NCBI GenBank assembly: GCA_964440285.1 | Contig: CAYTRV010000004.1 | Coordinates: 1-30,612, forward strand | Source: an uncultured Bifidobacteriaceae bacterium | GTDB taxonomy: Bacteria > Actinomycetota > Thermoleophilia > Miltoncostaeales > Miltoncostaeaceae | DNA length: 30,612 nucleotides | Direction: 5' to 3' | Shown here: positions 4,923-6,313 of the stretch, piece by piece | Layout: every line of letters starts with the position of its first letter | Position numbering within the stretch: the first letter of the stretch is position 1 | Translations under genes and position numbers: made by a program | The notes under the pieces: model-generated | Told to the model about the DNA's origin: nothing | The model's input: the letters and a program-made list of their open reading frames with translations, nothing else | The model's database searches: none

Positions 4923-6092
4923 ATGGTAGAGGACAACCACGGCGCCTACCTCGACCACGCCGCCGCCACGACAATCGACCCACGGGTGCGCGACGCGATG
5001 GCGCCGTTCATCGACGACGCGTTTGGCAACCCCGAGGGCCTGCACGAGTGGGCGCGAGGCCCGGCCGCTGCCATCGAGCGGGCGCGGTCGCAAGTCGCGG
5101 CGCTGATCGGCGCCGACGCGGACGGGGTCATCTTCACCGCGGGCGACACCGAGGCGCGCAACCTCGCCGTCAAGGGCGCCGCCGCGGCCAACGCCCATGC
5201 GGGCGACCATCTCGTCGTGAGCGCGGTCGATCACCCCGCGACGCTCGCCGCCGCCCGGACCGTGACCCGCGCCACCGGGGCCCTGACGATCGTCGGCGTC
5301 GACGGCGAGGGCCGGATCGACCCGCACCGGCTCGCCGACGCCGTCCGCGACGACACGGTGCTGGTCACCATCGTGCACGGGCAGCCGGAGATCGGCACGG
5401 TGCAGGACGTCCACGCGCTCGTCGCGTCCGTCCGGGCCCGTCGTCGCGACGTGGCCATCCACGTCGACGCAGGAGCGACCGCGGGCCTCGTCCCCGTCGA
5501 CGTCGCCGGCTGGGATTGCGATCTGCTCACCCTCGGCGGCGGCTCGCTCCTGGGTCCGCGGTGGGCGGGAGCGCTGTGGGTGCGGGAGGGCACGCGGCTG
5601 CATCCGCTGATCGAGGGTGGCCTGCAGGAGCGCGGGAAGCGCGGCGGCGCGCACGACACCCCGGGGATCGTCGGCCTCGGTGAGGCCGCACGTATCGCTC
5701 GCGACGAGCTCACCGCCCGCGCCGCCCACATGGGCGACCTCGCCGACCGGCTCATCGAGCGGCTGCTGGCGGTGGCCGACGTCCGGCTGAACGGACCGCG
5801 CCAAGGCCGCATCCCGGGCCACGTGCAGGTGTCGGCGGGATGGGTGGAGGGCGAGACGCTGGTGCTCGCGCTGGCCGCCCGGGGAGTGGCGGCGTCACCC
5901 GGGTCTGCGTGCTCGGCCGCCGGGAAGGCCTCGCCGGTCCTGGAGGCGATCGGTCTCGAAGCGCCGTGGACGCACTCGGCCGTGCTGTTCACGCTCGCCC
6001 CGTCCACCACCACCGCCGACATCGACATCGCCGCCGATGCCTTCGTGGACGCGGTCGCCGCCCTGCGCGCGATGAGCCCGCTCGCTCCGTGA
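4923..6092 (+). CDS. Cysteine desulfurase-like (IscS/NifS group I fold) protein lacking the PLP Schiff-base lysine
   Basis: YLDHAAATT, FGNP, FTAGDTE, DHPA, HVDA and GSACS (catalytic-loop Cys) match IscS, but the SxHK motif reads GGGS. Confidence 0.85.
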   Translation: MVEDNHGAYLDHAAATTIDPRVRDAMAPFIDDAFGNPEGLHEWARGPAAAIERARSQVAALIGADADGVIFTAGDTEARNLAVKGAAAANAHAGDHLVVSAVDHPATLAAARTVTRATGALTIVGVDGEGRIDPHRLADAVRDDTVLVTIVHGQPEIGTVQDVHALVASVRARRRDVAIHVDAGATAGLVPVDVAGWDCDLLTLGGGSLLGPRWAGALWVREGTRLHPLIEGGLQERGKRGGAHDTPGIVGLGEAARIARDELTARAAHMGDLADRLIERLLAVADVRLNGPRQGRIPGHVQVSAGWVEGETLVLALAARGVAASPGSACSAAGKASPVLEAIGLEAPWTHSAVLFTLAPSTTTADIDIAADAFVDAVAALRAMSPLAP

Positions 6093-6313
6093 GGATCGTC
6101 GACGCGCTCGGGACGTGGTGCCCCGTCCCCATCCACCTCGTCGCCCGCGCGATCGTGACCGTCGATCCGGGCGAGCCGGTCGCGCTGCTGGCCGACGATC
6201 CGCTCATCGAGGTCGACCTGCCCGCCTGGTGCCATGACAGCGGTCACGAGCTCGTCGAGCTCCGCCATGACGAGGGCGGCTACCGGGGGATCGTGCGGCG
6301 ACGGCTGTCATAG
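6089..6313 (+). CDS. tusA: TusA/SirA family sulfur-carrier protein
   Basis: 74 aa from GTG overlapping the upstream TGA (GTGA): [11 protein letters not shown] (CPxP), [14 protein letters not shown]. Confidence 0.85.

Follow-up and report, generated by a model that had tools for sequence, protein, structure and literature searches.

The window analysed in this study, a 30,612-nucleotide stretch of contig CAYTRV010000004.1 (GC 71%), encodes an IscS-like protein that has lost the catalytic site of cysteine desulfurases, has kept their mobile cysteine loop, is under purifying selection, and is almost invariably encoded next to the persulfide carrier TusA. The protein is labelled IscS* here, a name used for lysine-less IscS-like proteins, and residue numbers follow the Escherichia coli IscS scheme where so stated. 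IscS* cannot act as an ordinary cysteine desulfurase. Our hypothesis, drawn from sequence comparison and plausible if somewhat short of probable, is that IscS* and TusA form a persulfide hub or relay independent of pyridoxal 5'-phosphate (PLP), in which sulfane sulfur would be exchanged between Cys330 of IscS* and Cys11 of TusA. The two genes are as follows.

4923..6092, + strand: IscS* gene, lysine-less IscS-like, 389 amino acids, fold-type I Aminotran_5, PLP site eroded, mobile Cys loop intact
6089..6313, + strand: tusA-like gene, 74 amino acids, Pfam TusA 1.1e-15, 57.6 bits against a cut-off of 28.6

The open reading frame (ORF) at 4923-6092 was assigned to Pfam Aminotran_5 (5.7e-56). Its best NCBIfam matches were NifS and IscS, and it remained under all desulfurase equivalog cut-offs (NifS 337 vs 530.75, IscS 298 vs 643.2, DndA 258 vs 480). 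The AF2 model (pLDDT 87.9, pTM 0.89) was of low confidence in loops only, the Cys loop among them, as is expected for a mobile loop, and Foldseek superposed it on NFS1, E. coli IscS, and Archaeoglobus fulgidus IscS with TM scores of 0.90-0.92. By Pfam, AF2, and Foldseek, IscS* therefore has the fold and IscS-like two-domain architecture of class I cysteine desulfurases (EC 2.8.1.7), and it carries the catalytic Cys on the mobile loop (SPGSAC for the SSGSAC of the class). The other hallmarks of the class are missing: GGGS stands at the position of the S-x-H-K motif with the Schiff-base Lys, the PLP ligands Gln183, Ser203, His205, Thr243, and Asn155 as well as Arg354 are replaced, and the score of a curated NCBIfam equivalog is not reached. 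The frame is intact, and the G+C content at third codon positions (0.90) is similar to that of the neighbouring genes, in agreement with the intact frame and normal codon usage described in the original prediction.

The original prediction had placed Ser208 at the position of the Schiff-base Lys and Gly207 at that of the adjacent His, and had noted the loss of the Gln in HVDAGAT. These assignments were reproduced by phmmer against solved desulfurases, in which ...TLGGGSLLGPRW of IscS* was aligned on ...SFSAHKMYGPKG, so that Ser208 (codon TCG, 5544-5546) falls on the PLP Lys and Gly207 on the His; likewise, HVDAGAT stands opposite HVDATQS of the desulfurases. The residues that had been described as kept, namely the His of DHPA, the Asp, and Cys330 in GSACS, were found at 5232-5234, 5466-5468, and 5910-5912. 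The loss is wider than Lys, His, and Gln, as Ser203, Asn155, Thr243, and the substrate-binding Arg354 are gone too. The residues concerned are listed here with their counts among 168 IscS* sequences, scored in E. coli numbering, and, where given, among canonical sequences.

5535..5546, + strand: GGGS (Gly205-Ser208) replacing S-G-H-K; phosphate-binding Ser, His, and Schiff-base Lys lost
5232..5234, + strand: His104 codon in DHPA, ring-stacking and acid-base His, kept; His in 166/168
5466..5468, + strand: Asp182 codon (E. coli Asp180), kept; Asp in 165/168
5910..5912, + strand: Cys330 codon TGC (E. coli Cys328), loop Cys in SPGSAC/GSACS; Cys in 167/168
5985..5987, + strand: Leu355 codon replacing the substrate-carboxylate-binding Arg354; Leu in 167/168 vs Arg in 237/239 canonical
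5157..5159, + strand: Arg79 codon (E. coli Asp79), candidate salt-bridge partner of the Asp; Arg in 166/168
5562..5564, + strand: Trp214 codon (E. coli Gly212), in the GPxW motif that follows the position of the lost Lys; Trp in 167/168 vs Gly in 239/239 canonical
5925..5927, + strand: Lys335 codon (E. coli Glu334), acidic residue of the Cys loop replaced by a basic one; Lys in 166/168

Across the family, no sequence has Lys at position 206 (S/P/A/T instead), His at 205, Asn at 155, Gln at 183 (E/A/V instead), or Thr at 243 (0/168 each), and Ser203 is replaced by Gly in 163 of the 168. The PLP ligand set and Arg354 are replaced in at least 164/168 relatives. Two control sets, 119 lysine-containing representatives and 120 canonical NifS proteins from Thermoleophilia, retained all scored PLP, substrate, and Cys residues at ~100%. 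Roles for His104, Asp180, Gln183, Lys206, Cys328, and Arg354 in E. coli IscS have been established by experiment, and Gln183, Lys206, Asp180, and His104 were each required for activity upon mutagenesis (PMC9978102). The losses are accompanied by family-specific gains: D79R, N154Q, G212W, and E334K (E. coli numbering) are near-invariant. The basic residue at the Lys335 position recurs as Lys or Arg in 18/22 other lysine-less representatives, against Lys in 16/119 canonical sequences and in 0/120 Thermoleophilia NifS. As Asp79 contacts Asp180 in E. coli IscS (PMC9978102), we infer that Arg79 forms a salt bridge with the retained Asp and takes over from N1 of PLP; together with Arg79, Trp214 would help to plug the former cofactor pocket.

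Absence of the Lys is a property of the whole clade. All of the best 120 database relatives (92-61% identity) are without the PLP Lys. A scan with one genome per species revealed 58 IscS* loci down to 48% identity, all of them in Thermoleophilia, Miltoncostaeaceae, or unclassified Actinomycetota metagenome-assembled genomes (MAGs), and the 48 full-length copies were lysine-less without exception. The 168 sequences of the family as a whole stem from Thermoleophilia/Miltoncostaeaceae MAGs. The pairwise ratio of nonsynonymous to synonymous substitution rates (dN/dS) of IscS* was 0.12-0.27, in the same range as the adjacent genes for an M48 protease, a radical SAM protein, and a cyclophilin (PPIase), and slightly higher than that of serC. 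IscS* is under purifying selection. Independent sediment metagenome contigs cover the gene with codons 5541-5546 unchanged and with zero indels, and the sequence is present in sediment and soil metagenomes, habitats in which reduced inorganic sulfur is plausible. In one MAG (MFD05454.bin.1.194), near-identical copies of the locus were found on two contigs near the contig ends (L028 3945-5093 and L030 6001-7149), which probably reflects strain heterogeneity or an assembly duplicate.

The GTG start codon of the tusA-like gene (6089) overlaps the TGA stop codon of IscS* (6090-6092) in the sequence GTGA; the original prediction had noted this overlap and the CPVP motif. The encoded protein belongs to the TusA family PF01206, with the two-layer alpha/beta domain and the active Cys of the CPxP motif; the active residue is Cys11 (6119-6121) of GTWCPVP. 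Another Cys is present in the sequence PAWCH. The protein falls short of the E. coli TusA equivalog with its role in tRNA 2-thiouridine and molybdenum cofactor synthesis (NCBIfam PRK00299, 49.1 bits against a cut-off of 78). Linkage was assessed by tblastn of the window proteins against the 58 loci, those with enough downstream DNA being counted as informative. A tusA-like ORF directly 3' of IscS*, overlapping or within ~30 nt, was found in 52/53 informative Thermoleophilia loci. Among orthologous loci whose downstream DNA exceeds 1 kb, only L023 (2756-3892) is without such an ORF; the Cys loop of this copy reads GTAC and not GSAC. The CPxP Cys of TusA is kept in every aligned copy. The second Cys (PAWC) is present in all aligned bacterial copies and absent from the archaeal L083 and L124.

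The original prediction had regarded the gene as repurposed and selected and not as a pseudogene, and had proposed a comparison of orthologues including dN/dS. The outcome of this comparison (Lys 0/168, Cys 167/168, tusA 52/53, dN/dS 0.12-0.27) strongly supports that view, with Lys loss, Cys retention, and tusA linkage extending over the clade. The suggested role as a sulfur relay or scaffold fits the IscU, DsrE2, TusA, Mrp, and Rrf2 neighbourhoods of lysine-less relatives in other phyla, while no support was obtained for the variant with selenium. A link to a selenocysteine-containing gene in the window, which had also been raised, found no footing either: a search of positions 1-30612 returned no tRNA gene, there was no in-frame TGA candidate, and the TusA scores as TusA rather than YedF. 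In the same interval, a crude scan for in-frame TGA codons gave coding-like third-position G+C flanks only at gene junctions (12916, 15762, 16176, 24677) and did not locate the selenocysteine-containing gene.

Beyond the Thermoleophilia clade, the scores of a profile search against 1.84 billion representatives fell steeply, and many of the next-best matches were likewise without Lys, Gln183, and Arg354. In a neighbour-joining tree, calculated without support values and without the A. fulgidus sequence and therefore to be taken as a suggestion only, most other lysine-less representatives grouped with the window family. An alignment of five outgroup lysine-less proteins was used to find 80 IscS-type loci, 17 lysine-less and 63 lysine-containing. 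TusA was encoded within ~1.3 kb in 12/17 of the former vs 1/63 of the latter (Fisher p=1.2e-9), and neither TusA nor DsrE2 was found within 3 kb in any of 79 further canonical loci, which were taken from unrelated phyla among the matches listed in a genome scan with a NifS alignment. The arrangement IscS*-IscU-DsrE2-TusA (L067; Pfam, and NCBIfam for DsrE2) occurs in Deltaproteobacteria, Dehalococcoidia, and Anaerolineae, IscS*-TusA in Nitrospirota, and TusA-IscS*...IscU in Bathyarchaeia. Independent representatives showed IscS*-DsrE2-TusA (P0139), IscS*-TusA (P0172, P0132), Rrf2-IscS*-IscU-DsrE (P0127), and Mrp-IscS* (P0245). No paper tying lysine-less IscS to TusA or DsrE2 was found in the open literature, subscription journals being outside the coverage, and the link appears to be a general genomic association that has not been described.

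The sole lysine-containing locus with TusA nearby, L065, has kept the Lys and lost Gln183 and Arg354. It lies at 6001-7152 of a Nitrospirae MAG and is followed by IscU and TusA. In the proteins of both L065 and P0136, the PLP Lys and its His are kept and Gln183 and Arg354 are lost. Judged from their residues, these proteins may be intermediates in which the substrate site erodes ahead of the Lys.

The closest known systems are the lysine-less IscS of A. fulgidus (AF0564; PDB 4EB5, 4EB7, 4HVK) and IscS1 of Methanosarcina acetivorans. A. fulgidus IscS has no desulfurase activity and works with IscU through its Cys as a cluster ligand (PMC7585200; PMC13066941). It shares with IscS* the fold (Foldseek TM 0.90-0.95 to the model), the loss of the PLP Lys (replaced by Asp), the retained loop Cys, and the loss of Gln183 and Arg354, with SSND, DATAS, and GTLLL in the alignment; its archaeal relatives L083 and L124 have an adjoining tusA. 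By fold, replaced Lys, kept Cys, and lost Gln183 and Arg354, IscS* belongs to this type, and the precedent lowers its novelty. The two proteins are only ~36% identical, however, and A. fulgidus IscS keeps Ser203, Asn155, and a Ser at 243 and has IscU as its partner, whereas Thermoleophilia IscS* is without all PLP ligands but His and Asp, has its own R79, Q154, W214, and K335, and is encoded beside TusA, IscU being missing from the vicinity. IscS*-TusA is thus a more extreme, TusA-coupled bacterial version of the known lysine-less IscS type. The best sequence matches in the PDB were seven variants of one 406-amino-acid 'cysteine desulfurase' (9wep, 9wer, 9wew, 9wfe, 9wfy, 9wf8, 9wfb), which differ at the PLP site (Thr76 to Ile, Gln183 to Ala or Pro, Arg354 to Val); no explanatory paper was found for them.

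In the E. coli IscS-TusA complex (PDB 3LVJ), Cys328 lies ~4 A from Cys19 of the TusA CPxP motif (PMC2854127). IscS*-TusA combines the same two folds, and both cysteines are conserved; E. coli IscS differs in being an active PLP enzyme from which sulfur flows to TusA. The E. coli genes iscS and tusA are not known to be adjacent. The E. coli interface residues W45, E49, and D52 correspond to R45, A49, and E52 in IscS*, so that acidic character is kept only at 52. W45 is unconserved even among canonical enzymes, and for this reason the E. coli TusA interface cannot be used as a test of membership. The MIS (MisS-MisU) systems of archaea and anaerobic bacteria resemble the present case in that an IscS/NifS-type and an IscU-type protein act with no chaperones and can reportedly use sulfide (PMC13066941), and L067 and P0127, in which a lysine-less relative is accompanied by IscU, have the appearance of MIS variants. 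MisS is defined as a cysteine desulfurase, however, the review names no TusA or DsrE2 partner (PMC13066941), and the window is without IscU. Similarly, in the Rhd-TusA-DsrE2 relays of sulfur oxidisers, carriers of the TusA/DsrE2 type pass sulfane sulfur between cysteines, and DsrE2 and TusA occur together downstream of IscS* in L067 and P0139. In these relays, however, the sulfur is delivered to DsrC or sHdr in energy metabolism, and an IscS-like protein is not among the components. The window has no DsrE2 or rhodanese gene.

Selection maintains in IscS* the fold, the mobile Cys loop, which has acquired a positive charge, and the translational coupling to a persulfide carrier. In the mechanism we propose, IscS* would keep the dimer fold and the mobile Cys330 loop, with PLP and cysteine binding lost, and would for that reason be unable to make persulfide from cysteine. 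Sulfane sulfur could instead pass between Cys330 and Cys11 of TusA, which is translated together with IscS*. The likeliest direction would be from TusA-SSH to IscS*-SSH, opposite to the E. coli flow; it is favoured because IscS* would have no other route to sulfur and because the relatives are equipped with DsrE2 on the functionally upstream side and with IscU on the downstream side. IscS* would then be a docking hub that holds sulfur or hands it to the usual acceptors of IscS. For lysine-less relatives in other phyla, this acceptor would be IscU, in some cases with DsrE2 as an additional carrier. Possible sources of the sulfur are sulfide, polysulfide, and thiosulfate, or a separate desulfurase. 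H2S can supply Fe-S assembly in E. coli without IscS (PMC13015791).

Several observations weigh against a persulfide hub formed by IscS* and TusA. Neither the window nor any of the 58 Thermoleophilia loci contains a gene for IscU, DsrE2, or another acceptor within ~6 kb, so that the IscU pairing of the A. fulgidus type does not extend to this locus. Two of seven independent lysine-less representatives have no sulfur-relay neighbours, and the association with TusA and DsrE2 is thus strong and not universal. Co-variation of IscS* position 49 with TusA position 31, the positions of an E. coli salt bridge, gave a Fisher p of 0.07 over lineages that are not independent. None of the RNA runs searched for the window stretch contains it. 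The direction of transfer from TusA to IscS* is one that we can purely infer. With His104 and Asp180 kept, some ligand could still be bound. Finally, the K206A variant of E. coli IscS still holds PLP non-covalently and shows trace turnover (PMC9978102), and loss of the Lys alone is therefore no proof that PLP is absent; what matters in IscS* is the loss of the whole set.

The strongest competitor, which we consider unlikely without being negligible, is that IscS* serves as a structural partner in Fe-S assembly: Cys330 would act as fourth ligand of a [2Fe-2S] cluster that is being built on a scaffold, sulfide would enter directly, and no persulfide would be formed. Candidate scaffolds are an IscU or SufU encoded elsewhere, or TusA itself. 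A. fulgidus IscS, inactive and with the same loss of Lys, Gln, and Arg, ligates the IscU cluster through its Cys in just this way (PMC7585200; PMC13066941; PDB 4EB5), and many lysine-less relatives adjoin IscU, Mrp, or Rrf2. However, the Thermoleophilia genes have no scaffold gene in their surroundings (~6 kb), their constant neighbour is the persulfide carrier TusA rather than IscU, and a ligand role alone would leave the enrichment of TusA and DsrE2 unexplained. A structural role and a persulfide hub do not exclude each other. A further idea is that of a regulatory pseudoenzyme, which would tune sulfur flux without carrying sulfur, as a heterodimer partner or competitor of an active class I desulfurase or by sequestering TusA. 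The dimer fold is kept, and TusA and IscU of E. coli are competitors for binding to IscS, whose activity they modulate (PMC2854127; PMC11302665; PMC11446229), but a pure regulator has no need of Cys330 and its loop (167/168), and in a shallow search canonical IscS or NifS was found on no contig that carries IscS*. We regard this explanation as improbable.

That IscS* is still an enzyme, with PLP or pyridoxamine 5'-phosphate bound non-covalently or another cofactor on His104 and Asp180, and with a substrate other than free cysteine, appears very improbable. His104 and Asp180 are kept at 98-99%, the loop Lys335 is near-invariant and it or Lys239 might perhaps act as a substitute base, and the E. 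coli K206A precedent points the same way. Against this, the phosphate ligands Ser203, His205, and Thr243, the O3' ligand Gln183, Asn155, and Arg354 are missing in essentially all members, and the site has the look of a filled pocket, Asp180 facing the near-invariant Arg79 and Trp replacing Gly212. The A. fulgidus D199K back-mutant, in which the Lys is restored, is not known to have regained activity; it has been crystallised (PDB 4R5F). A decaying pseudogene or a strain-specific assembly error, for which nothing speaks besides the missing Lys, was refuted and has practically no probability left: the reading frame is uninterrupted in each of the 168 sequences, the most distant of them 48% identical, dN/dS indicates purifying selection, and independent metagenome contigs carry the same sequence with no indels.

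The IscS*-TusA pair bears on the open question of how sulfur enters Fe-S clusters and thio-cofactors in organisms that do not use cysteine as the donor; a 2026 review leaves undecided whether a sulfurtransferase acts as an intermediate in minimal systems (PMC13066941). IscS-like proteins whose PLP site is dead are more than the curiosity of one archaeon, as several phyla contain conserved families of them that are under selection. Their genes are specifically encoded with TusA and DsrE2, whereas those of canonical IscS and NifS almost never are, and this association makes a cysteine-independent sulfur relay directly testable. A wider reading, possible but on the doubtful side, is that lysine-less IscS proteins are the receiving end of a reversed, cysteine-independent relay, in which TusA, with or without DsrE2, would load environmental sulfur onto the loop Cys for the clients of IscS. 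If so, sulfur derived from sulfide, polysulfide, or thiosulfate would reach IscU Fe-S clusters and perhaps thio-cofactors, the missing sulfur-mobilising step of minimal ISC-type systems in anaerobes would be supplied, and Thermoleophilia IscS*-TusA would be the most stripped-down bacterial form. The relatives are named 'cysteine desulfurase' (JGI) or 'aminotransferase class V-fold PLP-dependent enzyme' (NCBI) in their source databases, and metabolic reconstructions could consequently credit MAGs with a desulfurase that they possibly lack.

Upstream of the IscS* gene, a promoter-like site was identified.

4886..4915, + strand: promoter-like site, GTGATA, 18-nt spacer, TAGAAT (-10 at 4910-4915)

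This was the only sigma-70-like match in the 3.1 kb from 4600 to 7700, with 0.1 expected, and the -10 element TAGAAT ends 7 nt 5' of the ATG of IscS*. The original prediction had given the gene a -10 of its own, and the element indeed recurs in seven orthologues of 72-85% amino acid identity as TA(G/C)AAT, 7-8 nt 5' of the ATG (7 in 6/7), where other intergenic DNA diverges. The conserved spacing places the start codon at 4923, and on this pattern the transcript is probably leaderless.

The genes around IscS* and tusA vary between subclades. In the window, serC (6324-7457; NCBIfam serC_3, 594 bits) begins 10 nt past the tusA stop codon, so that IscS*, TusA, and SerC are probably on one transcript in this subclade. 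As serC is 3' of tusA only in the window's own subclade, and is missing from most of the family, this linkage is likely incidental. In ~44 further Thermoleophilia loci besides L144 (9387-10004), among them L015 (5369-5980) and L047 (5378-5995), a Metallophos_2 phosphoesterase gene (PF12850, ~205 amino acids) lies directly 5' of IscS*, usually with a 4-nt overlap. The window subclade has no Metallophos_2 gene and the leaderless promoter in its place. Metallophos_2-IscS*-TusA looks like an ancestral three-gene operon from which Metallophos_2 was lost in the window subclade; a functional link is not obvious.

A radical SAM protein of the Rv2578c family (window 8840-9919; NCBIfam 380 bits vs a cut-off of 430) is encoded 1-6 kb downstream in most orthologous loci, and the divergent M48 protease gene upstream and an iPGM-TIM-PGK-GAPDH block have also kept their positions across the clade, from which the region can be taken as a vertically inherited housekeeping neighbourhood. 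Further downstream, window positions 10005-12918 encode a MauE-like membrane protein (PF07291) with a faint MauD-like tail, followed 3' by a 205-amino-acid ORF whose N-terminus has a faint match to the small subunit of methylamine dehydrogenase and by a 431-amino-acid ORF without a Pfam or NCBIfam match; these genes may form a quinoprotein-maturation-like cluster.

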